Below are positions 229 to 55,424 of a stretch of 64,000 nucleotides of DNA, piece after piece. Location of the stretch: positions 525,287-589,286 of the forward strand of contig JAODBD010000003.1 in NCBI GenBank assembly GCA_025463785.1, in the 5' to 3' direction. The position numbers and the translations under genes are program-made. This stretch comes from Glaciihabitans sp. (GTDB lineage: Bacteria; Actinomycetota; Actinomycetes; Actinomycetales; Microbacteriaceae). Numbering within the stretch: position 1 is the first letter of the stretch; every line of letters begins with the position of its first letter. The notes under the pieces are model-generated. The model saw only the letters and a list, made by a program, of their open reading frames with translations, was not told the origin of the DNA and made no database searches.

Positions 229-335
229 GAACATCCGAATCCTCGGAGGCTGAACTGCTTGCGAAAGTGCCCGACCAGCTGTTCATCGGCGGCGAGTGGG
301 CCGGCCGGGAGGGCGGACTCGAGGGCCGTCGATGA
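228..335 (+). pseudogene. remnant of an aldehyde dehydrogenase N-terminus (GabD/SSADH-like)
   Basis: Frame 3 reads ...SEAELLAKVPDQLFIGGEWAGREGGLEGRR* with the stop at 333-335. LL..VP..LFIGGEW is the characteristic N-terminal signature of ALDH-superfamily enzymes. There is no start codon and no continuation in any frame. Confidence 0.45.
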
Positions 336-423
336 AGTATCTGATGACGCCGAACCCGTTCGCGTAGGCGCCAGCCACTCACGCAGCCCCCATCCACACC
401 GCATCCCACCCGTGCCCCGGGTT

Positions 424-505
424 GCATAACTCATGCCGATTGACGCCGGGAGGCCCGCGTCGCCGCGTGTCGCGGCAAAACCGTGGCAACTGTCAGGAGT
501 TATGC
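424..505. repeat. palindromic-terminus element, copy A1 (about 82 nt)
   Basis: Left arm GCATAACTC(ATGCC) at 424-437, right arm GAGTTATGC at 497-505 (exact reverse complements), and an internal conserved core GCGTGTCGC at 465-473. A C-rich tract (about 380-420) lies immediately to the left. Confidence 0.7.
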
Positions 506-606
506 GCGGCCGACGTCGACGGGTTGCGATGGTGACCGCGGCGCGCCAATCAGATCTCGGCCGGGCGACCGTGGGCTGGAATTCTGGCGCGGTCGAGTCG
601 GCCACC

Positions 607-692
607 GTGCATAACTCCGGCTAGTTTTGCTGCGGGAGGCTCTGCTGCCGCGTGTCGCAGGTGTTCCGTCGCGGATGACAGGAGTTATGCAC
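607..692. repeat. palindromic-terminus element, copy A2 (about 86 nt)
   Basis: GTGCATAACTCC at 607-618 and GGAGTTATGCAC at 681-692 form a 12 nt perfect inverted repeat. The core GCGTGTCGC lies at 650-658. The interior shares GGGAGGC...GCCGCGTGTCGC with copy A1. Confidence 0.7.
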
Positions 693-694
693 GT

Positions 695-796
695 GGGAGG
701 ACGGGCACGGCTGGGAGGACCGGGAGGACTGGCACGGCTGGGAGGACGGGCACGGCTGGGAGTACTGGGAGTACTGGGACTACCGGGAGGGACGGG
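695..796. repeat. 9-bp periodic G-rich tandem array (about 11 units, GGGAGGACN / GGCACGGCT / GGGAGTACT variants)
   Basis: Direct reading shows GGGAGGACG GGCACGGCT GGGAGGACC GGGAGGACT GGCACGGCT GGGAGGACG GGCACGGCT GGGAGTACT GGGAGTACT GGGACTACC GGGAGGGAC. The array ends at the trmH-family ATG (797). Confidence 0.8.
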
Positions 797-1588
797 ATGA
801 GCGTCATCGAGATCGACTCGCTCGACGATCCGCGGTTGGCCGACTACTCGCACCAGACCGACGTCGCGCTCAAGAAGTCGGGCGGCGGCCTGTACATCGC
901 AGAGTCGCTGCTGGTGCTCCAGCGTGCGATCGCCGCCGGGCACGTGCCGCGGTCGGTGCTTGCGCTCGGCAACTCGGTCACCGAGGCCGTCGCGGCGACC
1001 ATCGGTTTCGACATCCCGATCTTCAGCGGGCCATCCGACCTGCTGGAAGAGCTCACCGGCTACCTCCTGCATCGCGGCCTCATCGCCGCCATGAACCGTC
1101 CGCCGCTGCCCGAACCCCGTGAGTTGATTCGGGATGCCCGCCGCATCATCATCCTCGAAAACGTCGCAGATCCAACGAACGTCGGCGCCATCTTCCGCTC
1201 GGTCGCCGCGATAGGTGCGGATGCTGTGCTCGTCACTCCGCGCTGCTCCGACCCGTTCTACCGTCGCGCCATCCGCGTCAGCATGGGCACAGTGCTGCAG
1301 GTACCGTGGACGCGCGTCGGCGACTGGGCCGCGACCCGGGAACTGCTGACCACATCCGGATTCCAGCTGGCTGCGCTGGCGCTCTCGGATGACGCCGTCG
1401 ACCTGAAAACGTACGCCCGGTCTGCGCCCGCCCGCGTCGCCCTCGTGCTGGGTGCCGAGGGCGAGGGATTGACTCCGGAGGCGATCGCTGCCGCGGATGT
1501 GGTGGTGCGCATCCCAATGGCGCACGGTATCGACAGCCTCAACGTTGCGGCGACCGCGGCCGTGGCAATGTACGCGCTGGTGGATTAG
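797..1588 (+). CDS. TrmH/SpoU family RNA 2'-O-methyltransferase
   Basis: 263 aa ORF with the SpoU motifs ILENVADPTNVGAIFRS, LVLGAEGEGL and IPMAHGIDSLNVAATAAVAMY. Confidence 0.9.
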   Translation: MSVIEIDSLDDPRLADYSHQTDVALKKSGGGLYIAESLLVLQRAIAAGHVPRSVLALGNSVTEAVAATIGFDIPIFSGPSDLLEELTGYLLHRGLIAAMNRPPLPEPRELIRDARRIIILENVADPTNVGAIFRSVAAIGADAVLVTPRCSDPFYRRAIRVSMGTVLQVPWTRVGDWAATRELLTTSGFQLAALALSDDAVDLKTYARSAPARVALVLGAEGEGLTPEAIAAADVVVRIPMAHGIDSLNVAATAAVAMYALVD

Positions 1589-1651
1589 GGGTCAAACGAC
1601 GCTTCTCACGAGAGGGGCGCGAGGGGTAACCGCCTGCCACAATGTTCGTCC

Positions 1652-1675
1652 GCCTCACCTGAAAGCAGGCGAGGC
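1652..1675. terminator. hairpin between convergent genes (possible bidirectional terminator)
   Basis: GCCTC-A-CCTG / AAAG loop / CAGG-C-GAGGC. It sits directly downstream of the minus-strand ABC exporter stop (1676) and about 64 nt after the trmH-family stop. Confidence 0.4.
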
Positions 1676-3532
1676 TCAGACGAGCAGCTGGTGCTTCGCG
1701 AGTTCACGGTAGAGCGGCGTCGATGCGACCAGCTCGGAGTGGGTGCCGACGCCGACCACGAGGCCGTGGTCGAGCACCACGATTTGGTCGGAGTCGACGA
1801 CGGTCGAGAGGCGATGCGCGATGACGATCAGGGTGCGATTCTCGGCGACCGCATCGATGGCCTCCCGAAGCAGCTGCTCGTTGAGCCCGTCGAGCGACGA
1901 CGTCGACTCGTCCAGCAGCAGGATGGGCGGAGCCGACAACAGGGTTCGCGCGATCGCCAGGCGCTGGCGCTCGCCACCGGAAAGCATGATGCCGTCCTCG
2001 CCGACCTCGGCATCGAGCCCGAGTTCGTTGCGCTCGAGGACCTCGGTCAGGTTGACGGCGTGCAAAACCGAAATGCACTGCTGGTCGGTCGCGTCGGGCG
2101 AGCCGAGCGTCAGGTTTTGGCGGATTGTCCCGGCCAGAACAGGCGCATCCTGCTCGACGTAGCCGATCTGTGCGCGCAGCGCAGTGCGATCGAGGGCACG
2201 GATGTCGACGCCGCCCAGTCGCACCACGCCGGCGGTCGGGTCGTAGAATCGCTCGATCAGGGCAAGGATCGTGCTCTTCCCGGCGCCGGATGGCCCTACC
2301 AGCGCGGTGCGCTTGCCGTGCGGAACCGTGAACGAGACGCCGTGCAGCACCGTGAGATCGTGGGCAGGGAGGGCGTCGGGAGCGACCTCGGCGATGGCCT
2401 TCTCGGTCTCCGACTTGTGCGCCTTCTCTGGGTAGGTGAAGACGACGTTCTCGAAGCTGACAGCGGCGTCCTGTTCGATGGCGGCGACCGGGGCGACGCC
2501 GGCATCCGGCTCGGATTCGCTCGGCAGGTCGATGATCTCCTGGATGCGACCGAGTGCGCCGAGCGCCTGGCTCACCGAAGTGACGGCCCCGAACGCGGAG
2601 CCGAGCGGCGCGATCATGGTGAACAGCAGGATGATGAACGCGATGAGTGAGGCGATCGACAGCGCGCCACTCGCCACGCGGAAACCACCGACACCGAGGA
2701 CGACCAGCACGGAAACCTGGAGCGCAACACCCGCAATCGGCACGACCAGCGCCGAAACCTTCGCGACCTTGATGCCCATCGTCCAGGCGCCCTGCGCGTC
2801 CTCCTGCACGGCGTCGATCTCACGCTCGGTCGCGTTCGACGCGCGAATGGTGCGGATGGCGCCGAGCGCCCGCGAGACACTCGCGGCCAGCTCGCCAACC
2901 TTGGTTTGTTGGGCCTGGCTTGCGAGCCGAATGCGCCCGGACAGCGTGCCGACGCCCACGATCGACACCCCGATCACGAGCACTGTGAGCCCGAGCAGGA
3001 TCGGGTCGATGAACGCCATTGCGATGAGCGAGCCGATGAACTGCAACGCCCCACCGATCGAGTCGATGAGGCCCTGCGTCATGACCGAGTAGAGCAACGT
3101 TGTGTCGGAGCCGACACGGGAAACCAGGTCACCCGTGCGGCGCGTGTCGAACTCGCTGATCGGCAGCCCGAGCAGTCGTCGGATGAGTCGCTTGCGCACC
3201 GACAGCACAACGGTCGTTCCCATGCGCTGCAACAGGTAGTGCTGCACGCCGCTGATGAGGGCGGATGCCACCAGCAGGATGATCACGGTGGCCGCGATCC
3301 ACCCCCACGGCTGCTTCGCCTGGAACACGGTGATGCCCTGCCGAACCAGCAACGGCTGTGCAACGGTCGTGAGCGAACCGATCACGCTGAGGATCACGAC
3401 GACCGCGACCATCGCCTTGTTCTGCAGCAAATAGGGGAGCAGCTGGCTGAATTTCGCCCGCGGTCCCTCGCTCGACTTGCCGCGACCGAAGAGGCCGCGC
3501 CGCGCTGGCGCCGCCTGGGTATCTGTGCTCAT
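1676..3532 (-). CDS. ABC transporter, fused permease/ATP-binding protein (MsbA/multidrug-exporter type)
   Basis: The ORF is 1676..3649; the internal ATG at 3532 (MSTDTQAAP...) was chosen as start. It has six N-terminal TM segments, Walker A GPSGAGKST, the signature LSGGERQR and Walker B ILLLDE. Confidence 0.88.
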   Translation of the reverse strand: MSTDTQAAPARRGLFGRGKSSEGPRAKFSQLLPYLLQNKAMVAVVVILSVIGSLTTVAQPLLVRQGITVFQAKQPWGWIAATVIILLVASALISGVQHYLLQRMGTTVVLSVRKRLIRRLLGLPISEFDTRRTGDLVSRVGSDTTLLYSVMTQGLIDSIGGALQFIGSLIAMAFIDPILLGLTVLVIGVSIVGVGTLSGRIRLASQAQQTKVGELAASVSRALGAIRTIRASNATEREIDAVQEDAQGAWTMGIKVAKVSALVVPIAGVALQVSVLVVLGVGGFRVASGALSIASLIAFIILLFTMIAPLGSAFGAVTSVSQALGALGRIQEIIDLPSESEPDAGVAPVAAIEQDAAVSFENVVFTYPEKAHKSETEKAIAEVAPDALPAHDLTVLHGVSFTVPHGKRTALVGPSGAGKSTILALIERFYDPTAGVVRLGGVDIRALDRTALRAQIGYVEQDAPVLAGTIRQNLTLGSPDATDQQCISVLHAVNLTEVLERNELGLDAEVGEDGIMLSGGERQRLAIARTLLSAPPILLLDESTSSLDGLNEQLLREAIDAVAENRTLIVIAHRLSTVVDSDQIVVLDHGLVVGVGTHSELVASTPLYRELAKHQLLV

Positions 3533-3642
3533 GGGATCAGCTTCGTCCGTACTTCTTGTGAACTGCCTGTTTGGATACGACGCGGATGCGCGCTTTCCGC
3601 GGCAATCCGGCGGGTCAGTCGTCTGGTCTAGGCTCTTATCCC

Positions 3643-4569
3643 GTGCCACAAGCCGTGATTACAGCATCGTCGCTGACCAAGAAGTATAAGGATTTTGTCG
3701 CCGTCGACGGAATCTCGTTCGAGGTTGCGCCCGGCGAATCCTTCGGGCTCCTCGGGCCGAACGGTGCTGGCAAGTCCACCACGATGCGCATGGTCGGCGC
3801 CGTGTCGACGCGGACGAGTGGCGATCTCAGCATCCTGGGTCTCGACCCCAATGACCACGGCCCTGAGATCCGGTCGCAGCTGGGTGTCGTTCCCCAGCAG
3901 GACAACCTCGACCAGGAGCTTCGGGTTCGCGACAACCTCATCGTGTACGGCCGCTACTTCGGCATCCCGGCCAGGCAGGTCGCCAGGCGTGCCGATGAGC
4001 TGCTCGAGTTCGCGCAACTCACCGATCGGGCGAAGTCGCGGGTGGACGACCTCTCCGGGGGGATGAAGCGGCGGCTCACGATCGCGCGCGCTCTCGTGAA
4101 TGACCCCCGCATCCTGTTGCTCGACGAGCCGACGACGGGGCTCGACCCGCAGGCTCGGCACATTCTGTGGGATCGCCTGTTTCGGTTGAAAGAACAGGGC
4201 ACGACCCTCGTACTCACGACGCACTACATGGACGAGGCAGAGCAGCTCTGCGACCGGATCGTGGTCGTCGACAAGGGCGCAATCATGGCCGAAGGATCGC
4301 CGGCCGCGCTGATCAAGCAGTACTCGACCCGCGAGGTTGTTGAGGTGCGCTTCGGATCGGACCGCAATGCCCAGGTCGCCACACAGCTCGACGGGATTGG
4401 CGAACGCAGCGAGGTGCTGCCCGACCGCATCCTGATTTACAGCGACAATGGCGAGGCCGCTCTCACGAGGATCGTTGAGCGCGGCCTCAGCCCGATGACG
4501 AGCCTCGTGCGCCGGTCGAGCCTCGAGGATGTATTCCTTCGGCTGACCGGTCGGAGCCTGATCGAATGA
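3643..4569 (+). CDS. ABC transporter ATP-binding protein (DrrA/NodI-like, ABC-2 exporter ATPase)
   Basis: Walker A GPNGAGKST, signature LSGGMKRR and Walker B LLLDEPT. The start is uncertain: GTG 3643 or GTG 3655, while the ORF is open from 3571. Confidence 0.88.
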   Translation: MPQAVITASSLTKKYKDFVAVDGISFEVAPGESFGLLGPNGAGKSTTMRMVGAVSTRTSGDLSILGLDPNDHGPEIRSQLGVVPQQDNLDQELRVRDNLIVYGRYFGIPARQVARRADELLEFAQLTDRAKSRVDDLSGGMKRRLTIARALVNDPRILLLDEPTTGLDPQARHILWDRLFRLKEQGTTLVLTTHYMDEAEQLCDRIVVVDKGAIMAEGSPAALIKQYSTREVVEVRFGSDRNAQVATQLDGIGERSEVLPDRILIYSDNGEAALTRIVERGLSPMTSLVRRSSLEDVFLRLTGRSLIE

Positions 4570-5384
4570 CCACGGCAGTGGAGCGCGACGCCATCATCGC
4601 GGCCGGCAGCAAGCCGCGCCGGTGGGGGTCGTTCTATGTCGCTGAGCACCGTATCCGTTCCATGCGCGCATACCTTCAGACGCTCGTCGTCACCAGCTTT
4701 GGCAACCCGCTGGTGTACCTCTTCGGCCTTGGCGTCGGCCTCGCGCGCCTGGTGCCGACCGAGATCGGACACGCGACCTACCTCGAGTTCGTCGCACCCG
4801 CACTGCTCGCTTCGGCTGCGGTGACCGTGGCGGCGGAGGAGTGCACCTACCCCGTGCTGATGGGCTTCAAGTGGAATCCCATCTTCTACGCCATGAACGC
4901 TGCGCCCATCTCTGGCACGCAGATCGTCAACGGCCTGGTGCTCGCCGTTGGGGTGCGTATGCTGCCGACCGTCGGCATCTACTTCGTGTTCATGCTGCTG
5001 TTCGGGGCGGTGCCCAGCGCGCTCGGTGTGCTCGGCATCCTCATCGCCGTTTTTACCGGGATGTCCGTCGGCCTGCTGATCATGGCCTACACCTCGACGA
5101 TAGTTGAGGATCGCGGCCAGATGGCCCTCATCCAGCGCTTCGGAATCATGCCGATGTTCCTCTTCTCGGGTACGTTCTTCCCGATCACCCAGCTGCCGGT
5201 CTACCTGCAATGGATCGGCTGGATCTCGCCGCTCTGGCACGGCACGCAGCTCGGGCGGGATGCCAGCTACGGGCAAAGCGAACCAGTCTGGCTCATCGCG
5301 GTCCACATCGCGTACCCGCTCGCGCTCGGTGCCTTCGGCTGGTGGTCGACGGCCCGCACCGTGACGAGGAGGTTGAACGCATGA
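4566..5384 (+). CDS. ABC-2 type transporter permease
   Basis: 272 aa polytopic membrane protein. Its ATG overlaps the ATPase stop (ATGA). Confidence 0.85.
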   Translation: MTTAVERDAIIAAGSKPRRWGSFYVAEHRIRSMRAYLQTLVVTSFGNPLVYLFGLGVGLARLVPTEIGHATYLEFVAPALLASAAVTVAAEECTYPVLMGFKWNPIFYAMNAAPISGTQIVNGLVLAVGVRMLPTVGIYFVFMLLFGAVPSALGVLGILIAVFTGMSVGLLIMAYTSTIVEDRGQMALIQRFGIMPMFLFSGTFFPITQLPVYLQWIGWISPLWHGTQLGRDASYGQSEPVWLIAVHIAYPLALGAFGWWSTARTVTRRLNA

Positions 5385-6217
5385 CGACAACGCCAGCCGC
5401 GCCCAGCACGTTCACGCCGCCGTCGCGCGGGCGGTTGCTCGGCTCGATCTATGCGGGCAACTCGCGCGCCGTTCTCGGTCGCGGCCTTCTCGCAACGCGT
5501 ACCTCCAACTATTGGATCATCCTCAGCGGCTTCTTCGAGCCCGTGTTCTACCTGTTGTCGCTCGGTATTGGGCTCGGGTCACTCATCCACGGCGTGACTA
5601 CGACGACGGGGCAGGTGGTCTCGTACCAGGCGTACATCGCGCCTGCGCTGTTGGCGGTTTCGGCCATGAATGGCGCCATCTACGACTCCACGTGGAACGT
5701 CTTCTTCAAGATGAACTACGCGAAGCTGTACGAGGGGATGCTGGCGACATCCATTGGTCCCTTCGATGTCGCGCTCGGCGAAATTGCGTTCGCTCTGCTG
5801 CGCGGGCTGCTGTACGCCATCGGATTCATGGTCGTCATGCAGGTGTTCGGGCTGAACCTCGCCTGGACCGCGCTCCTCGCCCTGCCCGCAGTTCTGCTCA
5901 TCGCCTTCGGCTTCGCCAGCCTCGGGATGGCCGTGACAAGTTACATGAAAACCTTCCAGCAGATGGACTGGATCAACTTCGTGATGCTGCCGATGTTCAT
6001 CTTTTCGGCGACGTTCTACCCGATCACGGTCTACCCGCAGGCTATCCAGTACATCATCGAGGTGCTGCCGCTCTGGCACGGGGTCGAACTCGTGCGGGGG
6101 CTGACGACGGGGTCACTCAGCTGGGGGCTTCTCTGGCACGTGCTGTATTTTGCGGTGATGATCACAATCGGACTGATCTTCACGACCAAGCGGCTCAAGG
6201 CGCTGTTTCTCAACTGA
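5381..6217 (+). CDS. ABC-2 type transporter permease (second subunit)
   Basis: The internal ATG at 5381 (MTTTPAAPS...) overlaps the previous stop (ATGA). The protein is polytopic and paralogous to the preceding permease. Confidence 0.85.
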   Translation: MTTTPAAPSTFTPPSRGRLLGSIYAGNSRAVLGRGLLATRTSNYWIILSGFFEPVFYLLSLGIGLGSLIHGVTTTTGQVVSYQAYIAPALLAVSAMNGAIYDSTWNVFFKMNYAKLYEGMLATSIGPFDVALGEIAFALLRGLLYAIGFMVVMQVFGLNLAWTALLALPAVLLIAFGFASLGMAVTSYMKTFQQMDWINFVMLPMFIFSATFYPITVYPQAIQYIIEVLPLWHGVELVRGLTTGSLSWGLLWHVLYFAVMITIGLIFTTKRLKALFLN

Positions 6218-6936
6218 TGGCCGTTCGCAAGTCGAGATCTCCTGGTCGGCCGCGGCATCCGGCTCGTACCCGCGCCGATGGGCGATCTCGAGCGGCACGG
6301 GCACGGACCGTCGCTCGCTATCGCGCCGCTCGCCGCAGTCGGAGGCTTGCGGCAATTCTCGTTGGCGTCGGGCTTTTTGCTGTCGTGATCGTTGTCGCCG
6401 TCGTCCTTCTGCGCCCGACCCCGACGCTTGCGCCACCGCGCGCCCATCCGCTTGCCGTGAGCTGTCCGGATGTGCTGCCGGTCATGGTCGGCAAGCTCCG
6501 CGTGCCCGCTGGCCCCATCGGCGGCTATTGCCAGCCGCAGCTCATCAACGCCGCCCTGATCATGAACGCGGGGCGCCAGTACGTCCTGCCCATCCGCAGT
6601 CAGGAGATCGGCGTGATGACGGCCATCGGTGAGTCCGGCCTGCGAAACCTCACCTTCGGTGACAAGGTAGGCCCCGACAGCCGCGGCGTGTTTCAGCAGC
6701 GAAGAAACTGGGGGCCGCTCTCGGAGCGGATGAATCCGTACATCGCCGCCCAGAAATTCTTCGGCCGGATGCTCGGTGTCCCCGGTTGGAACACCCGGCC
6801 GCCGACCGAAGTTGCGCACGCCGTCCAGGCCAACGCCGATCCCAACTACTACACGAAGTTCTGGGCGAGGGCGCAGGAGATTGTGGTGGCGCTCGCCGCC
6901 GACGAAGTGGTGATTCACCGGCGTGGAGTCGTGTAG
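6217..6936 (+). CDS. membrane-anchored hypothetical protein with an SLT/lysozyme-like motif (GESGLRNL...DSRGVFQQR)
   Basis: The ATG at 6217 overlaps the permease stop (TGATG). It has an Arg-rich N-terminus, one TM (LAAILVGVGLFAVVIVVAVVLL) and an extracytoplasmic domain. The functional call is inferred from motif resemblance only. Confidence 0.6.
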   Translation: MAVRKSRSPGRPRHPARTRADGRSRAARARTVARYRAARRSRRLAAILVGVGLFAVVIVVAVVLLRPTPTLAPPRAHPLAVSCPDVLPVMVGKLRVPAGPIGGYCQPQLINAALIMNAGRQYVLPIRSQEIGVMTAIGESGLRNLTFGDKVGPDSRGVFQQRRNWGPLSERMNPYIAAQKFFGRMLGVPGWNTRPPTEVAHAVQANADPNYYTKFWARAQEIVVALAADEVVIHRRGVV

Positions 6937-6956
6937 CGGGTGCAGTCGCGCGCGAC

Positions 6957-7838
6957 CTACCGGGTGAGCGGCGGCTGTGCCCCAACGTACTGCACGGCCG
7001 CACCGCCCGCGACGATGCCGGCCTTTACCGCCTCGGCGAGGCTTGAGCCATCTGCCAGAGCGGCCGCCAGGGCACCCGCAAACGCGTCGCCGGCACCGGT
7101 CGTGTCGACCACCGGAACGCGTTCCGCCAGAATGTGCTGCACTCCGCTGGCGTCGGCGACTACCGCGCCATCGCCTCCCAGCGTGATTGCAACCGAGCGG
7201 CTGGAAGCGAGCAGGCGCTTCGCGACGATCTGGGCATCCACGGGGCTGTCGATGATGCTGCCGGCGAGTTCAGAGGCCTCGGTCTCATTGAGGATGAGCG
7301 GGTCTGCCCAGCCGAGGGTGTGCGACGGCACTCTTTGGGAGGGCGAGAGGTTGAGCACGAAGCGACCACCGAGTTTCTCGGTCGCGGTCGCGGCTGCGGC
7401 GACAACCTCGACGGGAATCTCGAGTTGGGCGAGTACGACCGATCCCGCGGTGACCAGCTCGTTCACCCGCGCGACGACGGCGTCCACCTCGAGGGTGCCG
7501 TTGGCCCCGGCGGAGACGACGATCGAGTTCTCGCCATCATGGGTCACGGTGATCAGCGCGACACCGGTCGCCGTGGTCGACCTCACGACACACGAAACGT
7601 CGACACCGACCGCTTCGAGATCAGCAAGGATGTCCGCCCCGGTCGAGTCGTCGCCGACGGCTGCCAGAAACACGGGCTTCGCTCCCGCACGCGCCGCGGC
7701 GGCAGCCTGGTTGGCGCCCTTGCCGCCGGTGCCGGTGGAGACCTGCCCGCCGAGTACCGTCTCGCCGGGCAGCGGATGCCGGTCGACGAGCACCGTGTAG
7801 TCGCGGTTGGCCGAACCCAGGACGATGAGGCGAGCCAT
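6957..7838 (-). CDS. rbsK: ribokinase (PfkB family)
   Basis: MARLIVLGSANRDY..., GGKGANQAAAAA and DTTGAGDAFAGAL motifs. The internal ATG at 7838 was chosen as start. Confidence 0.85.
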   Translation of the reverse strand: MARLIVLGSANRDYTVLVDRHPLPGETVLGGQVSTGTGGKGANQAAAAARAGAKPVFLAAVGDDSTGADILADLEAVGVDVSCVVRSTTATGVALITVTHDGENSIVVSAGANGTLEVDAVVARVNELVTAGSVVLAQLEIPVEVVAAAATATEKLGGRFVLNLSPSQRVPSHTLGWADPLILNETEASELAGSIIDSPVDAQIVAKRLLASSRSVAITLGGDGAVVADASGVQHILAERVPVVDTTGAGDAFAGALAAALADGSSLAEAVKAGIVAGGAAVQYVGAQPPLTR

Positions 7839-7914
7839 CCCGTTACTCGGCCATCGTCGTGCGGTCGGCATCACAAGTTTTCTTGCTGGTCACCGCACCA
7901 TGCTAGTAGCGACG

Positions 7915-8406
7915 CTACTGGTGAACCGCGCCACCGCGGCGGAGTGACCGCAACAGGACGGCCGTCGCGACGGCGGCCTCTGCGGCCTCTTCGCCCTTGT
8001 CTTCCTTTGAGCCGGGGAGACCTGCCCGGTCGAGACCCTGCTGCTCGTCATCGAGGGTGAGCAGCCCGAAGCCGATGGGCTTGCCCGTCGCGATCGAGAC
8101 CTCGGTGAGGCCGCTGGTTGCGGCATCCGACACGTACTCGAAGTGCGGGGTGCCTCCACGGATTATGACGCCGAGGGCGACCACGGCATCCGCCCCTGCT
8201 TCCAGCACCGCCTTCGAGACCACGGGCAGTTCGAAGCTGCCAGGCACGCGCACTTCGGTCACCTCGACGTTGGATGCGGCGAGCGCACGGTGGGCGCCGG
8301 CGAGCAGTCCGTTCGAGATCTCTTCGTGCCATTGGCCGGCGACGATCGTCACCTTGAGTCCGGTGCCGTCGGTGTGCTGGATGCTGGGTGCGCCCGAGCC
8401 GCTCAT
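7915..8406 (-). CDS. ribH: 6,7-dimethyl-8-ribityllumazine synthase
   Basis: 163 aa with VPGSFELP and IRGGTPHFEYV motifs. It is the last gene of the rib operon. Confidence 0.93.
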   Translation of the reverse strand: MSGSGAPSIQHTDGTGLKVTIVAGQWHEEISNGLLAGAHRALAASNVEVTEVRVPGSFELPVVSKAVLEAGADAVVALGVIIRGGTPHFEYVSDAATSGLTEVSIATGKPIGFGLLTLDDEQQGLDRAGLPGSKEDKGEEAAEAAVATAVLLRSLRRGGAVHQ

Positions 8407-9689
8407 TCTGTGGATCCCTTCTGGTTCGCCAGCACTTTGCCGTCGAGGGTGTCATTGTCTGGAAGAACGTGGCCCATGCGGTCACGCTTCGCTTCGAGGT
8501 ACTTTTCGTTGAACTCGCCGACGCCGACGACGAGCGGCACGCGGTCGATTACCTTGATGCCGCGCTCCTTCAGCTGGCGCAGTTTCTCAGGGTTGTTTGT
8601 GATCGCCCGAACCTCAGAGATGCCGAGATCCTCAAGGATGGCGACGGCGGCCCCATAATCGCGCCCATCTGCCGGGAATCCCAGCGCCAGGTTCGCGTCC
8701 AGGGTGTCGAGGCCGTCCTCCTGGAGGCGGTAGGCCTTCAGCTTGTTGATGAGGCCGATGCCGCGACCCTCGTGGCCGCGCATGTAGATGACGATGCCGC
8801 CCTCTTGCTGGATGGCGTCGAGCGCGGCGTCGAGCTGTGGGCCGCACTCACACTTCTCCGAGGCGAACACCTCACCCGTCAGGCACTCGGAGTGCACGCG
8901 CATGAGTGTGCCGTTGGTGGGGTTGCCCGAGATGATCGCGAGGTGATCTGCTCCGGTCTGGCGGTCGCGGTATGCCCGGAAGCGGAACGCGCCATGCTCG
9001 GTCGGCACAGTCGTCTCGACCTCGAAGATCACGCGCGAGGATTCCGGAATCTCGACGGAGAGCGGAACATCGGTATCGCAGTGCCATTCCTGCAGGTACT
9101 CGATGAGGGCGCCAACGGTCGTGACGACGAGTTCTTCGCGCTCACCAAATTCGATGAGCTGGGGCAGTCGCATCATCTCGCCGTCATCGCCGACAATCTC
9201 GCCGATCGCTCCGACCGGGATGAGGTCGGCCAGCTTGAGCAGGTCGACCGCCGCCTCGGTGTGGCCGCCTCGCGAACGCACTCCGCCATCCACCGCCCGA
9301 AGGGGGAGGATGTGGCCCGGCCGGTTGAGGCTCGCCGGCGTCGACTCCATGCTGGCCAGTACGCGCAGGGTATGCGCCCGGTCGGCAGCGCTAATGCCGG
9401 TGCTGAGGCGATCGGCCGCGTCAACCGTGACCGTGTACGCGGTGCCCAACGGATCCTGGTTGTCGAGCACCATGAGCGGAAGCTCGAGGCGATCGGCGAT
9501 CTCGTGCGTCATGGGGGCACAAATGAAACCGGAGGTGTGACGGATCATGAACGCCAGCCACTCCTGCGTCGCGAACTGGGCGGCGATGATGAGGTCGCCC
9601 TCATTTTCGCGGCTCTCGTTGTCGACCACGATGACTGGCCGACCCTCGCTGAGTGCTGCCAGGGCTGTGGGGATGTCGGCGAGACTCAT
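8403..9689 (-). CDS. ribBA: bifunctional 3,4-dihydroxy-2-butanone-4-phosphate synthase / GTP cyclohydrolase II
   Basis: 428 aa. The N-terminal DHBP synthase part carries DNESRENEGDL and the C-terminal GCHII part carries HSECLTGEVF...CECG. Confidence 0.93.
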   Translation of the reverse strand: MSLADIPTALAALSEGRPVIVVDNESRENEGDLIIAAQFATQEWLAFMIRHTSGFICAPMTHEIADRLELPLMVLDNQDPLGTAYTVTVDAADRLSTGISAADRAHTLRVLASMESTPASLNRPGHILPLRAVDGGVRSRGGHTEAAVDLLKLADLIPVGAIGEIVGDDGEMMRLPQLIEFGEREELVVTTVGALIEYLQEWHCDTDVPLSVEIPESSRVIFEVETTVPTEHGAFRFRAYRDRQTGADHLAIISGNPTNGTLMRVHSECLTGEVFASEKCECGPQLDAALDAIQQEGGIVIYMRGHEGRGIGLINKLKAYRLQEDGLDTLDANLALGFPADGRDYGAAVAILEDLGISEVRAITNNPEKLRQLKERGIKVIDRVPLVVGVGEFNEKYLEAKRDRMGHVLPDNDTLDGKVLANQKGSTE

Positions 9690-10354
9690 GACTCGCTCCT
9701 CTCGTTTGAGATTGAAAACCCGATAGGTGTGCGGGGATCGCGGATGGAGCTGGGCTCGTCATCCGCACCGAACTGGATGAGACGCTGAACCTGCCTCGCG
9801 AGGATGTCGGTCTCGATGTTGACCCGGTCGCCGACAACCTTGCTTCCGAGGGTCGTCGCCTCGAGGGTTTCGGGGATGAGCGAAACCTCGAACCAGTCGC
9901 CGCCGACGGCGCTGACCGTGAGCGAGATTCCATCGATCGCGATGGAGCCCTTCCGCGTGACGAGTGGGGCGTGCTCGGCATCGAGGCTGAGGCGCACGAC
10001 GCGCCAGGCGCTGCCATCCTCGATGCGCAGGATGCCGCTGGTGCCGTCGATGTGACCCTGCACGATGTGGCCGCCGATGCGGTCGCCCACCTTCGCGGCG
10101 CGCTCGAGGTTCACCCGGGTACCGGGTGTGAGCCCCGAAAGCGTGCTGGCGGCGATCGACTCGGCCATGACGTCCGCGGTGAACCAGTCGTCGCCCTGGT
10201 CGATGACCGTGAGGCAGACGCCGCTGACCGAGATCGAGTCGCCGTGTTTGGCGTCAGAGACCGCAATGGGTGCCTTGACGGTGACGCGGGCGGCGTCGGC
10301 CGTTTGCTCCCAGGCGATGATCTCGCCGAGTTCTTCGATGATTCCGGTGAACAT
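9686..10354 (-). CDS. ribE: riboflavin synthase alpha chain
   Basis: MFTGIIEELG... with the duplicated lumazine-binding repeat (GDSISVSGVCLTV / GSIAIDGISLTV). Confidence 0.92.
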   Translation of the reverse strand: MFTGIIEELGEIIAWEQTADAARVTVKAPIAVSDAKHGDSISVSGVCLTVIDQGDDWFTADVMAESIAASTLSGLTPGTRVNLERAAKVGDRIGGHIVQGHIDGTSGILRIEDGSAWRVVRLSLDAEHAPLVTRKGSIAIDGISLTVSAVGGDWFEVSLIPETLEATTLGSKVVGDRVNIETDILARQVQRLIQFGADDEPSSIRDPRTPIGFSISNERSES

Positions 10355-10356
10355 GG

Positions 10357-11451
10357 CTATGCTCCTGTTCTCTCGTTGGCTTTGCGGCGCGCAGAGGCGC
10401 GAGTATCGAGCCCAGCCCCGCCGCGCACCGGCCGTGCCGTGAGTAAAAGATCGCCGCCCAGCTGCTCGACGCTTCGGACATCCAACCTCTTGATGCCGGG
10501 CATGCTCGTTACGCCGATGTCGCCGATCGCGAGCTTGTCGCCGCCCAGCAGTGTCGGCGAGAGGTAGATGGCGTACTCGTCGACCAGGTCTTCTGCGACG
10601 AGGGCGCTTACCAGCGTCGGGCCACCCTCGACGAAGGCGCGACGGATGCCGCGATCAAACAGCGCGCCGAGGATCGCGGGCAGATCCCGGCTCGCCGTCT
10701 CGATCAGGCCGGCCGGGTGTCGCCGGAGTTTCGCAGCCGCCGGGATTGCACGCTCACCGACGACAACGGGAACCGGCTGGTGCTCCATGAGCTCGCCGGC
10801 ATCCCCGCGTGCTGTCAGCGACGGATCGTCGGCGAAGACAGTGCCGGTGCCGACCAGGATGGCATCGTTCGCGGCGCGCTGCTCGTGCACCCGCTGGCGG
10901 GCGGCCGTGCCGGTGATCCACTGGCTGGAACCGTCTGCTGCTGCGGCACGGCCGTCGAGCGTCGATGCCCACTTCACTGTGACGTAGGCGCGGCGAAGGC
11001 GGGTCGAGGTGAGCCAGACGCGGAGGAACTCTGTCGCCTCATCGGCGAGCAGGCTACCCGTGACGGTGACGCCCGCCTCGGCCAGGCGCTCGGCGCCGCC
11101 GCGAGCAAGCAGGCCCGGGTCGCTGACGGCGAAGAAGACCTCGTGGATGCCGGCGGCGATCAGCGCCTCGGAGCACGGCCCCGTACGCCCGGTGTGATTG
11201 CACGGCTCGAGCGTCACCACGGCGGTGAGGCCGCGCGCGTCCGGGCGGCCGTCGACCTGGGGGAGTTGGGAAAGGGCATCCACCTCGGCGTGTGCTGTTC
11301 CGGCGCCGCGGTGCCAGCCCTCGGCGACCGTATTGCCGTCGGAGTCGAGGATGACGCAGCCGACCTGCGGGTTGTCGCCGGTTGCCGGGCCGCGCGACGC
11401 GAGATCGAGGCCGTGGCGCATCGCCTGCTCGAGTTGCTGTCGTTCGATCAT
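10357..11451 (-). CDS. ribD: bifunctional diaminohydroxyphosphoribosylaminopyrimidine deaminase / 5-amino-6-(5-phosphoribosylamino)uracil reductase
   Basis: Deaminase zinc motif HAEV...LEPCNHTGRTGPC plus a C-terminal reductase domain. The internal ATG at 11451 (MIERQQ) was chosen because it lies 5 nt after a GAGGA Shine-Dalgarno sequence. Confidence 0.9.
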   Translation of the reverse strand: MIERQQLEQAMRHGLDLASRGPATGDNPQVGCVILDSDGNTVAEGWHRGAGTAHAEVDALSQLPQVDGRPDARGLTAVVTLEPCNHTGRTGPCSEALIAAGIHEVFFAVSDPGLLARGGAERLAEAGVTVTGSLLADEATEFLRVWLTSTRLRRAYVTVKWASTLDGRAAAADGSSQWITGTAARQRVHEQRAANDAILVGTGTVFADDPSLTARGDAGELMEHQPVPVVVGERAIPAAAKLRRHPAGLIETASRDLPAILGALFDRGIRRAFVEGGPTLVSALVAEDLVDEYAIYLSPTLLGGDKLAIGDIGVTSMPGIKRLDVRSVEQLGGDLLLTARPVRGGAGLDTRASARRKANERTGA

Positions 11452-11454
11452 CCG

Positions 11455-11650
11455 GTCCTCAGTTCTGAGGCTCCGGGGATTGGTCGTGTGAGACCTGGTG
11501 CGTGGCGACGCCAAACACCGTGTGCTGCCTCCCATCCGGACTTTAACCGTCGGTCTCGGAGTTTCACCGAGTCAACCGCGTCGACTTTCGTCTGGACGGC
11601 TCGTGGACTATCACCACCGGTTCGGACTCTCACCGACCCCGGAGCACGTT
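11455..11650 (-). ncRNA. FMN riboswitch (RFN element) with an SD-sequestering expression platform
   Basis: The minus strand reads GUGCUCCGGGGUCGGUGAGAGUCCGAACCGGUGGUGAUAGUCCACGA...GGUGAAACUCCGAGACCGACGGUUAAAGUCCGGAUGGGAGGCAGCAC, which matches the conserved RFN core. The downstream hairpin CCUCAGAACUGAGG (plus-strand 11457-11470) includes the ribD SD. Confidence 0.92.
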
Positions 11651-11695
11651 TCTACTGTACTAAACGCCACCGGCGCGTGGGTATTCCCGCGTAAC

Positions 11696-11745
11696 ACCGC
11701 CGCCCACCCGCCCCGCCGCCCACCTCCCGTCCCGCGCCGCCATCC
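11696..11745. repeat. C-rich low-complexity tract (G-rich on the minus strand)
   Basis: CACCGCCGCCCACCCGCCCCGCCGCCCACCTCCCGTCCCGCGCCGCC. It is approximately inverted with respect to the G-rich tract at 12968-13085. Confidence 0.7.
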
Positions 11746-11748
11746 GCT

Positions 11749-11828
11749 CGTAACTCATGCTGCGCCGCGCCGCGGGGTCTCCTTACCGGCGTGTTGCATC
11801 CAGCTGCCAGCTCGTGGCATGAGTTACG
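11749..11828. repeat. palindromic-terminus element, copy B1 (about 80 nt)
   Basis: CGTAACTCATGC at 11749-11760 and GCATGAGTTACG at 11817-11828 form a 12 nt perfect inverted repeat. The core GGCGTGTTGC lies at 11788-11797. Confidence 0.7.
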
Positions 11829-11938
11829 CACGCCAGCGCCGCGCGCGACCTCTCCTCGGCAGGGTGCCGATAGCCGGGAGTTTTCACAGAAACGGCCTCG
11901 GGTCGTTCCGGTGGCGCTATGCAAGGAACGATTTTGGG

Positions 11939-12802
11939 ATGGCGTGGGCAGAGACGTTCGAATCCGTCGGCCTGGTGATCGCCAGCCGGAACGAGCTTGT
12001 CAGCTGCGGCGCGCGACCGCGGAGCCTCACGGCGGCCGTGCGAAACAACTATCTGATCAGAGTGCGTCGCGATCACTACGCGCTGCCGGGCACCGCAGAA
12101 GACATCGTTCAGGCCGTACGCGTGGGTGGCAAGATTGCCTGCGTCACGGTGCTCGCACGTGCCGGGATTTTCGTCTTCGACGCGACGTTCCCCCATGCTC
12201 ACCTTCGCAAGGCCGCGTCGCGGAGCCGGTCGCCACGTAATCGATTCGTCCCATTGACGGTCGACAACCGCGACGGCGTGGAGTTGCACTGGGTTCCCCT
12301 CGCAGAGCCCGAGCGCGCGAATGAGTTTTCGGTGGGGCTGCGCGACGCGCTGATCCAGGCGGTTCGATGCCAGCATCCATGGATGGCGGTTGCCTCGCTC
12401 GACAACGCCCTCTACCTTGGCCTCGTCGACCGGGGCGACATCCGTTACATCTTTCAGCAGCTGGGTGCGAAGTATTCGTACCTCGAGAAGCGGCTCAACG
12501 GTCGGAGCGAGTCCGGCCAGGAGTCGGTGCTGCGAATGATCCTGGACGAATTGGGGCTCGACTACGAGATCCAGGTGACCTTCCCGGGCATCGGACGAGT
12601 CGACTTTCTCGTCGAGAATCGCTTGGTGGTCGAGGCCGACAGTCGGGTGGCTCACGATGGGTGGGAACTCCACGTCCGCGATCGTGATCGCGACATCGAC
12701 CTGGCGCGACGCCACCTTATGAGCATCCGCCCCGCTTATCGGCGCACCATGTTCGCGCCGGATGACGTTCGGGATGCGATCCTCGGTCTTCTGACGGCTT
12801 AA
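11939..12802 (+). CDS. wHTH (AbiEi_4-like N-terminus) + DUF559/Vsr-like PD-(D/E)xK-fold protein
   Basis: The internal ATG at 11939 (MAWAETFES...) was chosen as start. The N-terminus reads L..CGARPRSLTAAVRNNYLIRVRRDHYALPG and the C-terminus reads SESGQESVLRMIL..LGL....QV..PGIGRVDFLVENRLVVEADSRVAH. The start is uncertain because the ORF is open from 11498. Confidence 0.7.
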   Translation: MAWAETFESVGLVIASRNELVSCGARPRSLTAAVRNNYLIRVRRDHYALPGTAEDIVQAVRVGGKIACVTVLARAGIFVFDATFPHAHLRKAASRSRSPRNRFVPLTVDNRDGVELHWVPLAEPERANEFSVGLRDALIQAVRCQHPWMAVASLDNALYLGLVDRGDIRYIFQQLGAKYSYLEKRLNGRSESGQESVLRMILDELGLDYEIQVTFPGIGRVDFLVENRLVVEADSRVAHDGWELHVRDRDRDIDLARRHLMSIRPAYRRTMFAPDDVRDAILGLLTA

Positions 12803-12874
12803 CCAGGGCTCTCGGGGCTGGCTTGCCTGTGGCTGTTCCGCGGGCGTTCGCGCCGCCGGATGGTTCCCGCGCGC

Positions 12875-12955
12875 GCATAACTCATGCCGCTCTGGTGATT
12901 TGCTCGGCAACACGCCGCCAGACAGCCCATTCGACCGTTGTCAGCATGAGTTGCG
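12875..12955. repeat. palindromic-terminus element, copy B2 (about 81 nt, inverted relative to B1)
   Basis: GCATAACTCATGC at 12875-12887 and GCATGAGTTGCG at 12944-12955. The core lies on the opposite strand (GCAACACGCC at 12907-16). Confidence 0.7.
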
Positions 12956-12967
12956 AACCACACAACC

Positions 12968-13085
12968 CGGGCGCGGTGGCGGGGCGGGGCGGCGGGTGTG
13001 GGGCAGTGGGCCGGCGCCGGGGCCGGGGCCCGGGGCCGGGGCCCGCGGCCGGGACCGTGCCGGTGGCGGGGCGGCGCGCGCGGGC
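12968..13085. repeat. G-rich low-complexity tract with (GGGGCC)n-like runs
   Basis: GGTGGCGGGGCGGGGCGGCGGGTGTGGGGCAGTGGGCCGGCGCCGGGGCCGGGGCCCGGGGCCGGGGCCC... It has many runs of 4 or more G. Confidence 0.75.
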
Positions 13086-13086
13086 G

Positions 13087-13806
13087 CTACAGCGCCGCGA
13101 GGAGCGGCGGCAGTTCGGCCAGCGTCGTGATCGTGTGGACTCCGGATGCCGCTGCCGAGCGAACCTCTTCGGCCGAAGCCGCTCCACCGCGGTTGACCCA
13201 CACGCCCGCAAGCCCCGCGGCGGCCGCGCCGATCGCGTCGGTGTTGAGCCGATCACCCACGTACGCAGCGGAAGCGGGAGACACGCCGAACAGGTCGCAC
13301 GCGTGCAGGAAAATGCTCGGGTCGGGCTTCACGGCACCGAAATCGCCCGATGTCACGATGTGCTCGAACCACGGTGTAAGCCCGAGCACATCGAGCTTGG
13401 GCTGCTGAAAGTGGGTAACCCCGTTCGTGATAATCCCGAGCCGCAAACCGCGGAGCGCCGCGAGCATGGGCACCGCGTCGTCGTGCAGCGTCCACGCCGC
13501 GCGATAGTGCGCCAGGTAGTCCTCGAACCAGGTCTCGGCCGCGAGGTTGTCGGCAAAAGTGATTCCGTACGGTTCCATGAAGTCTCGCGCGCGGGCGTGA
13601 CGCTGGCCCAAATAGTCGAGTTCGCCGCCCAGATACCGCGTGTAGTGCTTCTCTTCGAGCGCGGTCCACCGTGTGGCCTCGGCGCCCTCATCGAACGGAC
13701 CCGGCAGTTCGGTGAGCGATTTCAGGTGCGCAACCACCCCATCCTCAACTGCCCGCCGGTGGGCGAAAAGCGTATCGTCGAGGTCGAAGAGCACTACGGA
13801 GATCAC
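13087..13806 (-). CDS. HAD-superfamily hydrolase (subfamily IA)
   Basis: Motif I is VLFDLDDTLF, followed by GIITNG and the motif IV region YVGDRLNTDAIGAAAAG. GTG 13806 was chosen as start, although the ORF is open to 13854. Confidence 0.8.
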   Translation of the reverse strand: MISVVLFDLDDTLFAHRRAVEDGVVAHLKSLTELPGPFDEGAEATRWTALEEKHYTRYLGGELDYLGQRHARARDFMEPYGITFADNLAAETWFEDYLAHYRAAWTLHDDAVPMLAALRGLRLGIITNGVTHFQQPKLDVLGLTPWFEHIVTSGDFGAVKPDPSIFLHACDLFGVSPASAAYVGDRLNTDAIGAAAAGLAGVWVNRGGAASAEEVRSAAASGVHTITTLAELPPLLAAL

Positions 13807-13839
13807 GTCACTATCTTGGCCCGTGGAGGATGAGTGGAT

Positions 13840-53920: not shown

Positions 53921-54026
53921 CCCTCGGCGGGTCACTCGCCAATGTGATGGGTCGACCGGCGCCGCCCGCCGCGCGCCGCGCCGCGCGCCCGCCGCCCGCC
54001 GCCCGCCGCACCAGCGTGTGCGCGTA

Positions 54027-54080
54027 GGTTTGTCGTGAGCGCTGACGTGTGTACAGGCGCGCTCGCGGCGAAACACCGCG
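54027..54080. repeat. 54-nt direct repeat, left copy
   Basis: GGTTTGTCGTGAGCGCTGACGTGTGTACAGGCGCGCTCGCGGCGAAACACCGCG. 41 of 54 positions are identical, ungapped, to 55250-55303 (hand count). A C-rich tract (53958-54012) precedes it. Confidence 0.75.
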
Positions 54081-54196
54081 CCACTCACAACGGGACCCCG
54101 CTGCGCCAGTCCTCACCAGCGGAAGTCCGCAGTCATCCATCCCCAGTTCCCGCTGTTGGCATAACCCTGATCCGATTGATTCGGGATGCTGAATCC

Positions 54197-55168
54197 ATGC
54201 AGGATGCTCCGTATCAGGACTGGAGGGACGAGTTCGTTCTCGCCCGTGATGTGCGCTCGCGCGGTGGCCATGCCGAACTGGTGCAGGCCGTGCGCGCGCG
54301 GCGCCTGGTGCCGGTAATCCGGGGGGCGTATCGCCGAATCGACGCCGTGCGCCGGGCGATTGTCGCCGAACATCCCCGTGACGATGCCTTTCGCGCGAGA
54401 ATTCGCGCAGCGCACCTGCTCGCCAGCGCACCTCCGACCTTCGCAGGTTTCGCGGCGGCAGCGATCTGGCGATTGCCTATCCTGGGCGACTGGCCACCGA
54501 TGATCGACGTTCTCGTTGACCCGTCCACTGGTGGACGTTCGAACGCAACACTTCGACGCTCGTACGTTGGCTGGCCGGGGGAGTACGTGGAGGTTGACGG
54601 GCTGAGAGTCACTCCCCTGTCCCACACCGTCGTGGCGACGGCGCGCACCGCCTCGTTCGCGCAGGCGGTCGCGTTTGCCGATGCCGGGTTGCACGGAGCC
54701 GACCAGCGCGGGTCAATCCCTGCGCGAAAGCCCGTTACGCGCGCCGATCTCCTCACCCAGCTCACCCGGTTCGGCGGTGGCCGAGGGGTGCGAAAAGCTC
54801 GCGGGGCGCTGGACTTTGCGGATGGCGCATCGGGTTCTGCGGGCGAGTCGGCGAGCCGGGTTGGAATCCGGCTGCTCGGCATGCCAAAGCCGCAGTTGCA
54901 GGTTCCGTTCTCGGATGACCGCGGTCATATTGGCACCGTCGACTTCTGGTGGCCGGAGTTCAACCTCATCGGGGAGTTCGACGGCGAAGGCAAGTACCTT
55001 CGCGATGAGTTCACCCAGGGCAGGACGGCAGCCGAGGTCGTGATCGACGAGAAGAATCGCGAGAATCGACTGCGTGCCCTCGGGCCCTCGTTGACACGGT
55101 GGGACTGGCCCGTTGCGCGCTCCCTGATCCTGCTGCGGGCACACCTCGCGGCAGCAGGCCTGCGGTAA
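54197..55168 (+). CDS. wHTH + PD-(D/E)xK-fold (DUF559-related) protein, second family member
   Basis: Internal ATG at 54197 (MQDAPYQDW...). The N-terminus reads LVQAVRARRLVPVIRGAYRR and the C-terminus reads IGTVDFWWPEFNLIGEFDGEGKYL...EKNRENRLRALG (D...E.DG..K pattern). Confidence 0.7.
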   Translation: MQDAPYQDWRDEFVLARDVRSRGGHAELVQAVRARRLVPVIRGAYRRIDAVRRAIVAEHPRDDAFRARIRAAHLLASAPPTFAGFAAAAIWRLPILGDWPPMIDVLVDPSTGGRSNATLRRSYVGWPGEYVEVDGLRVTPLSHTVVATARTASFAQAVAFADAGLHGADQRGSIPARKPVTRADLLTQLTRFGGGRGVRKARGALDFADGASGSAGESASRVGIRLLGMPKPQLQVPFSDDRGHIGTVDFWWPEFNLIGEFDGEGKYLRDEFTQGRTAAEVVIDEKNRENRLRALGPSLTRWDWPVARSLILLRAHLAAAGLR

Positions 55169-55249
55169 CGCGCGCGGTGCCCGCCCGGCCGGGCCTGCCG
55201 GGCCTGCCGGACGGTGCCCGCCCGCGCGGGCACCCCCCGCTTGCGCGCA

Positions 55250-55303
55250 GGTTGGTCGCGGGGGCGGCGGTATATACATGGGCGCTCGCGACAAAACACC
55301 GCG
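55250..55303. repeat. 54-nt direct repeat, right copy
   Basis: GGTTGGTCGCGGGGGCGGCGGTATATACATGGGCGCTCGCGACAAAACACCGCG, followed by a G-rich tract and a duplicated CCGCGGCTCGCGGGA (about 55348-55400). Confidence 0.75.
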
Positions 55304-55424
55304 GCAGAGCCTTCGCGGCGGTGCGGCGCGGCGGCGCGTCCGTGGGCCCCGCGGCTCGCGGGACCTGCCACCCGCGGCTCGCGGGAGCCGCCAGCGCGCG
55401 CCGCGGCCAGCGCAGCCCGGGAGC

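Follow-up and report, generated by a model that had tools for sequence, protein, structure and literature searches.

Palindromic elements and a nuclease gene in the window

The window analysed here is a 64,000-nucleotide (nt) stretch of the genome of Glaciihabitans sp. (C9:525287-589286), which carries four copies of a palindromic element, two of them framing a gene for a predicted nuclease of 287 amino acids (aa). The genome to which the window belongs (G000) comprises 3.3 Mb in 15 contigs, with a G+C content of 64% and a completeness of 97%. Genomes of the same genus (G001-G012) served for comparison, whereas higher G numbers denote genomes among 151 sampled Microbacteriaceae and L numbers denote fetched loci. 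The elements, the gene and the tracts that adjoin them are located as follows.

380..420, no strand: C-rich tract on the 5' side of copy 1 (sequence)
421..508, + strand: copy 1, an 88-nt palindromic element of the shorter length class, core GCGTGTCGC on the + strand (covariance-model bounds)
606..693, + strand: copy 2, upstream of a SpoU methylase gene, at a site likewise occupied by a copy in G003, G005 and G006 (covariance-model bounds)
694..796, no strand: tandem array of G-rich 9-nt units (TGGGAGGAC and the like), directly adjoining copy 2 on its 3' side (repeat search)
11696..11744, no strand: C-rich tract outside the nuclease cassette, on its 5' side (sequence)
11745..11832, + strand: copy 3, left frame of the nuclease gene (covariance-model bounds)
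11939..12802, + strand: gene for the 287-aa protein, AbiEi-like winged-helix plus Vsr/DUF559-like PD-(D/E)xK nuclease domain (open reading frame (ORF), predicted structure and homologues)
12872..12959, - strand: copy 4, right frame of the nuclease gene, core inverted relative to copy 3 (covariance-model bounds)
12968..13085, no strand: G-rich tract containing short tandem repeats, outside the cassette on its 3' side (sequence)

A preliminary description of this DNA had placed the four copies at 424-505, 607-692, 11749-11828 and 12875-12955, and all of them are present, no more than 3-4 nt from those positions. The terminal inverted repeats that it reported are real, with a perfect stretch of 9-12 bp and an imperfect stem reaching approximately 17-19 bp, and the shared core, (C/G)GCGTGT(C/T)GC, is found 36-37 nt past the start of AACTC. 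Copy 4 is indeed inverted, its core lying on the opposite strand.

The presence of these four copies lies far beyond chance, as judged from pattern and profile counts over the whole genome. The exact pattern TAACTC-N-GAGTTA, with N of 40-90 nt, has 18 matches in G000, 14 of which show a distance of exactly 76 nt, and the pattern AACTCNNGC-N50-64-GCNNGAGTT has 19 matches compared with none when it is read backwards. A profile built from the exact-pattern copies identifies approximately 28 distinct loci, together with a few partial arms. Profile and covariance-model scans of the genome and its relatives thus recover many more copies and a wide conservation, contrary to the possibility, raised at the outset, that no further copies would exist; nor are the copies the ends of a larger insertion sequence (IS) or prophage.

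The resident nuclease gene and its association with the repeat

The 287-aa protein itself has no match in Pfam or NCBIfam even at E <= 10 and no sequence match in the PDB. Hundreds of homologues exist, named either 'very-short-patch-repair endonuclease' or AbiEi-domain protein, and two of these score as members of known families: P0003 (64% identical) reaches the Pfam cut-off for DUF559 and P0117 (57% identical) that for AbiEi_4, the families sought being PF13338 (AbiEi_4) plus PF04480 or PF18741. In the AlphaFold model (pLDDT 94, pTM 0.89), Foldseek matches the N-terminal half to the AbiEi antitoxin (6y8q) and the C-terminal domain to Vsr (1vsr, 1cw0), to I-Bth0305I (3r3p) and to the DUF559 protein NGO0050 (3hrl), with TM scores of 0.75-0.79, normalised to the target, for 3r3p and 3hrl. 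Asp222, Glu232, Asp234 and His239 (D222, E232, D234, H239) are invariant in 50 homologues. As modelled, the protein is an AbiEi-type winged-helix domain fused to a predicted nuclease domain of the Vsr/DUF559 type. A Y1 transposase (PF01797) is not matched anywhere in the 97%-complete G000, although control genomes do match, and the enzyme is therefore not TnpA(REP)/IS200-like. The earlier suggestion of a co-distributed TnpA(REP)/IS200-like or other nuclease gene holds in its second part, in that copies 3 and 4 enclose a nuclease gene, one that has the repeat around it in many genera, but not in its first.

The gene and the repeat are associated, and the association is clear from orthologous loci only, since the three paralogues that tblastn finds within G000 lie away from most elements. 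At the orthologous locus in the same genus, G003, G005 and G011 carry a gene 50-54% identical to that of the window with an element on each side, and G006 has one copy before its contig ends. In G001 the gene is frameshifted and accompanied by one full and one miniature copy, whereas the locus in G002, G007 and G009 contains other DNA, with neither gene nor element. Among 20 gene loci of other genera, where protein identity falls to 32%, the element is found on both sides at 14 and on one side at two when the unfiltered model is used; overall, the gene is framed by the repeat in approximately 15 genera. The G001 miniature (L130 3175-3222) is 46 nt long and consists of the two arms and a 14-nt loop directly after the frameshifted gene; weak model matches of 48-68 nt elsewhere among the orthologous sites may likewise be copies with internal deletions.

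The pairing extends to the sequence of the arms. The variants of the framing copies are the same as those of the dispersed copies in G000, G003, G005/G006 and G011, and likewise in G135, G116, G090, G122, G083 and G108. Counted without phylogenetic correction, the element occurs in 14 of 16 genomes that have a close orthologue of the gene (E < 1e-55) and in 24 of 135 that do not. The cassette adjoins ribD, which belongs to an FMN-riboswitch operon, and/or a HAD hydrolase gene in eight of the 11 genera examined, and this synteny identifies it as an old, vertically inherited resident rather than a roaming element. The preliminary description had linked the copies to accessory or decayed DNA, which is correct only for the site of copies 1 and 2, where an ALDH gene has been deleted; the nuclease cassette is instead an old resident of a conserved locus. 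In the window, an Rfam scan places the FMN riboswitch (93 bits) ahead of ribD at 11520-11649 (-), its promoter side facing copy 3 over the C-rich tract.

With the covariance model R1, the family is detected in 38 of the 151 sampled Microbacteriaceae genomes and in 30 of 101 genera; R1 element counts that reach approximately 29 per genome are lower bounds. True copies with species-specific arms are present in the same-genus genomes G003, G005, G006 and G008, whereas chance seems to explain the pattern matches in G002, G010 and G012. When the representative genomes of GTDB are scanned with a degenerate pattern, at least 116 matches result, most of them by chance, and genuine family members are among them, from Galbitalea, Frigoribacterium, Cryobacterium, Compostimonas and Microbacterium. 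We found no published description of this gene-repeat association in the literature on DUF559, on REPtron/RAYT or on the Pfam families concerned.

Anatomy, setting and turnover of the palindromes

Two alignments, one ungapped with 23 copies and one with 36 sequences that adds seven other genera, agree that only the arms, the core GCGGCGTGTCGC and the length of the element are conserved. The arms follow the consensus tGCRYAACTC-NN-GCTG ... CAGC-NN-GAGTTRYGCa, in which AACTC and GAGTT are invariant in both alignments. A conserved 12-nt motif occupies a fixed, off-centre position, and the length is constant to within one base inside one genome. A second length class has 86-88 nt between the arms and a central CCCGGAATTCCGCGG-like motif, so that the whole element measures 88 or 98 nt according to class. 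The interiors of the G000 copies, by comparison, have a mean identity of 30.7%, against 29.0% after shuffling. Saturated interiors beside preserved arms, core and length indicate that each copy is either selected or corrected in place; interiors at random level weigh against frequent copy-and-paste and are better explained if these three features are selected or corrected locus by locus.

The terminal helix of approximately 17 bp covaries, with 13 of 19 pairs changed on both sides. Double changes fill 94 cells of the stem compared with approximately 40 expected, and none of 500 shuffles reaches the observed covariation. Stem mismatches of the G·U type (37) and of the A·C type (30) are balanced, so that no strand is favoured, which indicates a palindrome of DNA, whether as duplex, cruciform or either single strand, rather than a strand-specific RNA. 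These observations point to a DNA palindrome under constraint at the DNA level. No consensus structure or covariation is found inside the terminal stem, RNAalifold giving the terminal helix alone, and folds of single sequences vary between copies. The curated Rfam models match none of the elements at E <= 1 in window 1-14000, where the FMN riboswitch is the sole find. Two further candidates were rejected. A mini-ORF is suggested by an ATG and a TGA in the arms that are in frame at the 76-nt spacing, yet the idea was dropped because many copies carry CCGG or CAGG arms instead. An integron attC site is approximated only, GCATAAC/GTTATGC standing in for RYYYAAC/GTTRRRY, and the element has an unbroken stem and scattered copies.

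The copies are intergenic, as had been claimed: 24 of the 28 in G000 lie outside any GC3-supported ORF, and the remaining four fall in 5' extensions of ORFs whose start was set at the most upstream start codon, which has been verified for copy 3 only. Approximately ten copies lie between convergent genes, the direction of the core varies where genes stand in tandem, and copies occur both upstream and downstream of genes. The C-rich and G-rich tracts noticed beside the four copies are borne out statistically over all 28 by a mean GC skew of -0.15 on the 5' (left) flank and +0.19 on the 3' (right) flank, with the expected sign in 21 and 24 cases, respectively. This polarity is symmetric under reverse complementation and therefore says nothing on the orientation of the element. 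Short tandem repeats are found at most 120 nt from 17 of the 28 copies, compared with 25% of random intergenic windows. A check for target-site duplications of 2-5 bp gives no excess over expectation at any of 14 offsets (0-13). The description of the copies as REP/MITE-like is thus half right. They resemble repetitive extragenic palindromic (REP) sequences in being dispersed, intergenic and palindromic, but not miniature inverted-repeat transposable elements (MITEs), since there is neither a target-site duplication nor an IS with these ends and the interiors are unrelated.

Gene-free doublets of the element, 70-260 nt apart, are present at four sites in G000, in direct orientation by their cores. 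Element-bearing DNA is duplicated locally in tandem at two places: at C1:25779-26037, a 175-nt unit that holds a whole copy is present exactly twice, and at C9:433973-434104 a copy's right half recurs two to three times beside the copy at C9:434016.

Comparison of orthologous sites shows gains and losses of the element between species of one genus, and thus a slow turnover. The interval between the ALDH and SpoU methylase genes contains an element in G000, G003, G005, G006 and G011 and a variant with other arms in G012, and none in G001, G002, G004, G007, G008, G009 and G010. The ALDH gene, which in most same-genus genomes accounts for a gap of approximately 1.4 kb from the upstream hydrolase to the SpoU methylase, is missing from G000 and G011; in G000, positions 228-797 of the window hold a short ALDH N-terminal stub, the C-tract, copy 1, a 97-nt spacer, copy 2 and the G-rich 9-mer array. 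Of five further G000 sites, two are common to G003, G006 and G011, one has a counterpart in G011 alone and the other two are confined to G000.

Sites without the element in other species often hold unrelated hairpins or sister palindromes, and one such sister family combines arms CGCAAAGTCGGAATCTGG with a near-identical core (GCGTGTGG). The orthologous sites L177, L179, L180, L183, L184, L189 and L190 (from G001, G003, G005, G006 and G011) show unrelated long palindromes from one species to another, with arms such as CATAACGGTTGTGCAGGAG, AATTCAGGAGTC and CCGTGAGGGGCGGCAGAAGGCCCT; in some of these the two arm motifs trade places relative to the present family, GAGTT standing on the left and AACTC on the right. 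At C9:132059-132136 (L158 660-737), just upstream of an element, there is a canonical U-tract hairpin (AAAAGGCGA-TTTC-TCGCCTTTT), and this 66-77-nt stretch has 79-86% identity to several unlinked places in G005 and G011, so that it may be another small repeat.

A closer comparison is offered by L192, from a near relative with 85-90% DNA identity over the locus, where positions 760-1380 correspond to window 11650-11840 and contain the left framing copy. Compared with copy 3, this copy is 88% identical in its right half and only 48% in its left interior, with a break in homology seemingly near the core, and the C-rich tract that precedes it is approximately four times longer than in the window. 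Interior and flanks can therefore change faster than arms. A search of metagenomes with the SpoU methylase protein, for close relatives that would allow filled and empty sites to be compared, returned none above 85% identity, and L192 is the sole near relative of the cassette that was found.

The pairing of a gene with a palindrome is not confined to this family. G000 has five genes of the nuclease kind, each flanked by its own palindrome family, and three of these families have further copies elsewhere. The second pair also lies in the window:

54017..54091, + strand: left copy of family 2 (GCGCTGAGGTTTGTCGCGRGCGC...GTAYGTAC...; approximately 11 copies genome-wide) (sequence search)
54197..55168, + strand: gene for a 323-aa sister nuclease, framed by family-2 palindromes (ORF)
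55240..55313, + strand: right copy of family 2 (sequence search)

The 323-aa protein is too divergent to match the first nuclease by tblastn (E <= 1e-4). Three further paralogues with their own palindromes are located at C8:187860-189280, C9:472220-473600 and C15:96860-98470. Family 3 has arms CTTTYGGAAATTCAGGAGATC and a few partial matches elsewhere in G000; family 4 has GTCGGAGWTTCKGSCGAC with inner GCGACACGCCGC/GCGGCGTGTCGC, its extra copies reusing the GAGTT/AACTC and GCGGCGTGTCGC modules in a different arrangement; and family 5 is of the form GTTATCSGCGTG...TTCATGAA.

Interpretation of the gene-repeat pairing

We consider it probable that the elements are a REP-like family of non-coding DNA palindromes in a long-lived, cognate and REPtron-like pairing with a single resident winged-helix/nuclease gene, and we infer that the enzyme acts on the repeats. 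In such a pairing, the winged-helix domain would recognise the arms around the invariant AACTC/GAGTT, and the nuclease domain would then nick or cut the extruded hairpin, the cruciform or the duplex. Cutting could allow rare copying of the element into new intergenic sites, and could preserve complementarity between a copy's two arms, for instance through Vsr-type processing of stem mismatches. Several observations weigh against this interpretation. No recent copying event is seen, and interiors at random level (0.307 compared with 0.290) are unlike the master-dominated populations of REPINs and fit conservation in place better than active replication. G010 has the gene and no detectable element, and no close orthologue is present in 24 genomes that carry the element. 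The arms of the best dispersed copies differ from the framing ones in G085 and G071, which have further subfamilies. The relative orientation of the framing copies also varies, being inverted in G000 and G003 and direct in G005 and G011, and the co-occurrence counts are not corrected for phylogeny.

A more elaborate form of the proposal is that a Vsr-type nuclease both maintains and propagates the palindromes, cutting extruded hairpins both at the element boundaries and at stem mismatches, with repair keeping the arms complementary, scrambling the interior and occasionally seeding new copies; repair synthesis primed from the element's two 3' ends would leave short G-rich tandem repeats, seen as C-rich sequence on the 5' flank and as G-rich sequence on the 3' flank. 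We regard this as improbable; if true, it would represent a new, non-transposase way to build and keep a repeat family as well as a new source of microsatellites in high-GC genomes.

Conservation of arms, core and length against saturated interiors could also arise if the palindromes were sites useful to the host, such as bidirectional terminators, 3'-end stabilisers or nucleoid and regulatory sites, each selected at its own locus. The protein would then be chiefly an AbiEi-like regulator with the upstream palindrome as its operator, and the dispersed copies would be its binding sites rather than products of the enzyme. AbiEi represses its own promoter through binding to inverted repeats, and the N-terminal half of the protein is AbiEi-like; many copies lie between convergent genes, and unrelated hairpins occupy the same intergenic positions in other species. 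Nevertheless, the copies vary in how they are oriented and placed with respect to genes, some lying upstream and others downstream, the nuclease gene has copies on both of its sides, presence and absence differ at orthologous sites within the genus, and at C9:132171 a canonical U-tract hairpin already stands ahead of the element. The nuclease residues, moreover, are invariant, and a pure regulator would need none, so we judge such a host role unlikely. That the gene is instead a selfish parasite of the homing type, which seeks out palindromes already in place and lodges between or within them without propagating them, would account for the fold match to the catalytic domain of the homing endonuclease I-Bth0305I, for the gene-free doublets, 70-260 nt apart at four sites, as possible empty targets, and for the frequent occurrence of homologues on contigs of 1.1-2 kb. 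It sits poorly with a gene that is single-copy for its family and is found at one conserved ribD / HAD hydrolase locus in eight of 11 genera, which implies that it has not moved over family-level divergence, and with framing copies that are whole elements rather than halves of a split target; we hold it to be distinctly doubtful.

A structured small RNA or cis-regulatory RNA family, with terminal helix and loop motif conserved, would explain the covarying helix, the fixed length and the 12-nt motif at its fixed position, but is highly improbable given that wobble pairs and A·C mismatches are nearly balanced with no strand bias, that structure and covariation stop at the terminal stem, that Rfam offers no match, that orientation to neighbouring genes is mixed and that the interior flips its orientation between species. 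An ordinary MITE moved in trans by a DDE transposase, encoded by an IS that shares its terminal inverted repeats, would likewise be small, bounded by such repeats and spread between genes. We give this explanation next to no weight, since no target-site duplication exceeds expectation at the 14 offsets, a whole-genome profile search finds no IS-sized unit with these ends except the nuclease cassette, and the interiors are unrelated.

The closest parallel to the pairing of gene and palindrome is provided by the REPtrons, or REPIN-RAYT systems, of Proteobacteria, in which REP sequences are paired with TnpA_REP (PMC8266576, PMC3337134, PMC3733652). Both have short extragenic palindromes in tens of scattered copies, and in both each repeat family has a single cognate gene with copies of the family on either side. 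The gene has lost its own mobility and is passed on vertically at a fixed locus, and several gene-repeat pairs can coexist in one genome. The enzyme, in contrast, is a winged-helix protein with a Vsr/DUF559 PD-(D/E)xK nuclease domain rather than a Y1 HUH transposase, and the GTAG/CGTC tag at the palindrome end (PMC3733652) is missing from alignment A2. The element is also far longer, at 88 or 98 nt, with a long unconserved interior and a fixed length, there is no cloud around a master sequence, and the four doublets are direct by their cores, not inverted. As the defining enzyme and tag are both absent, the pair is not a member of the REPtron family, though it may work in a similar manner.

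Each half of the protein has relatives of its own. The fold of the N-terminal half is shared with the AbiEi antitoxin of the type IV AbiE toxin-antitoxin system (6y8q), but the cassette contains no partner gene for an AbiEii nucleotidyltransferase and the winged helix is fused to a nuclease domain. DUF559 has been placed in the Vsr clade together with an intron homing endonuclease (PMC3424549), and the C-terminal fold, with invariant acidic and histidine residues, is common to Vsr, DUF559 (3hrl) and the EDxHD homing endonuclease I-Bth0305I (3r3p). Unlike Vsr and the homing endonucleases, the gene has no cytosine methyltransferase neighbour within the cassette, is not located in an intron or intein and is framed by cognate palindromes. 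The repeats are similar to MITEs such as Correia elements and Nezha in being small, intergenic and bounded by terminal inverted repeats, but differ in showing no target-site duplication, no parent IS and interiors that are unrelated between copies.

REP-type repeats with a domesticated enzyme have so far been tied to Y1 transposases, mostly in Proteobacteria. Here the same genomic logic is seen in a high-GC Gram-positive family with an unrelated enzyme from the very large AbiEi_4/DUF559 group. Since the locus between ribD and the HAD hydrolase gene is fixed and the arms are species-specific, co-evolution of the two partners is directly testable. If the link is functional, it would provide a role for hundreds of proteins annotated as 'hypothetical' or 'very-short-patch-repair endonuclease', account for many actinobacterial intergenic palindromes and the assembly breaks that they cause, and offer a tractable case of convergent evolution in repeat-enzyme partnerships.

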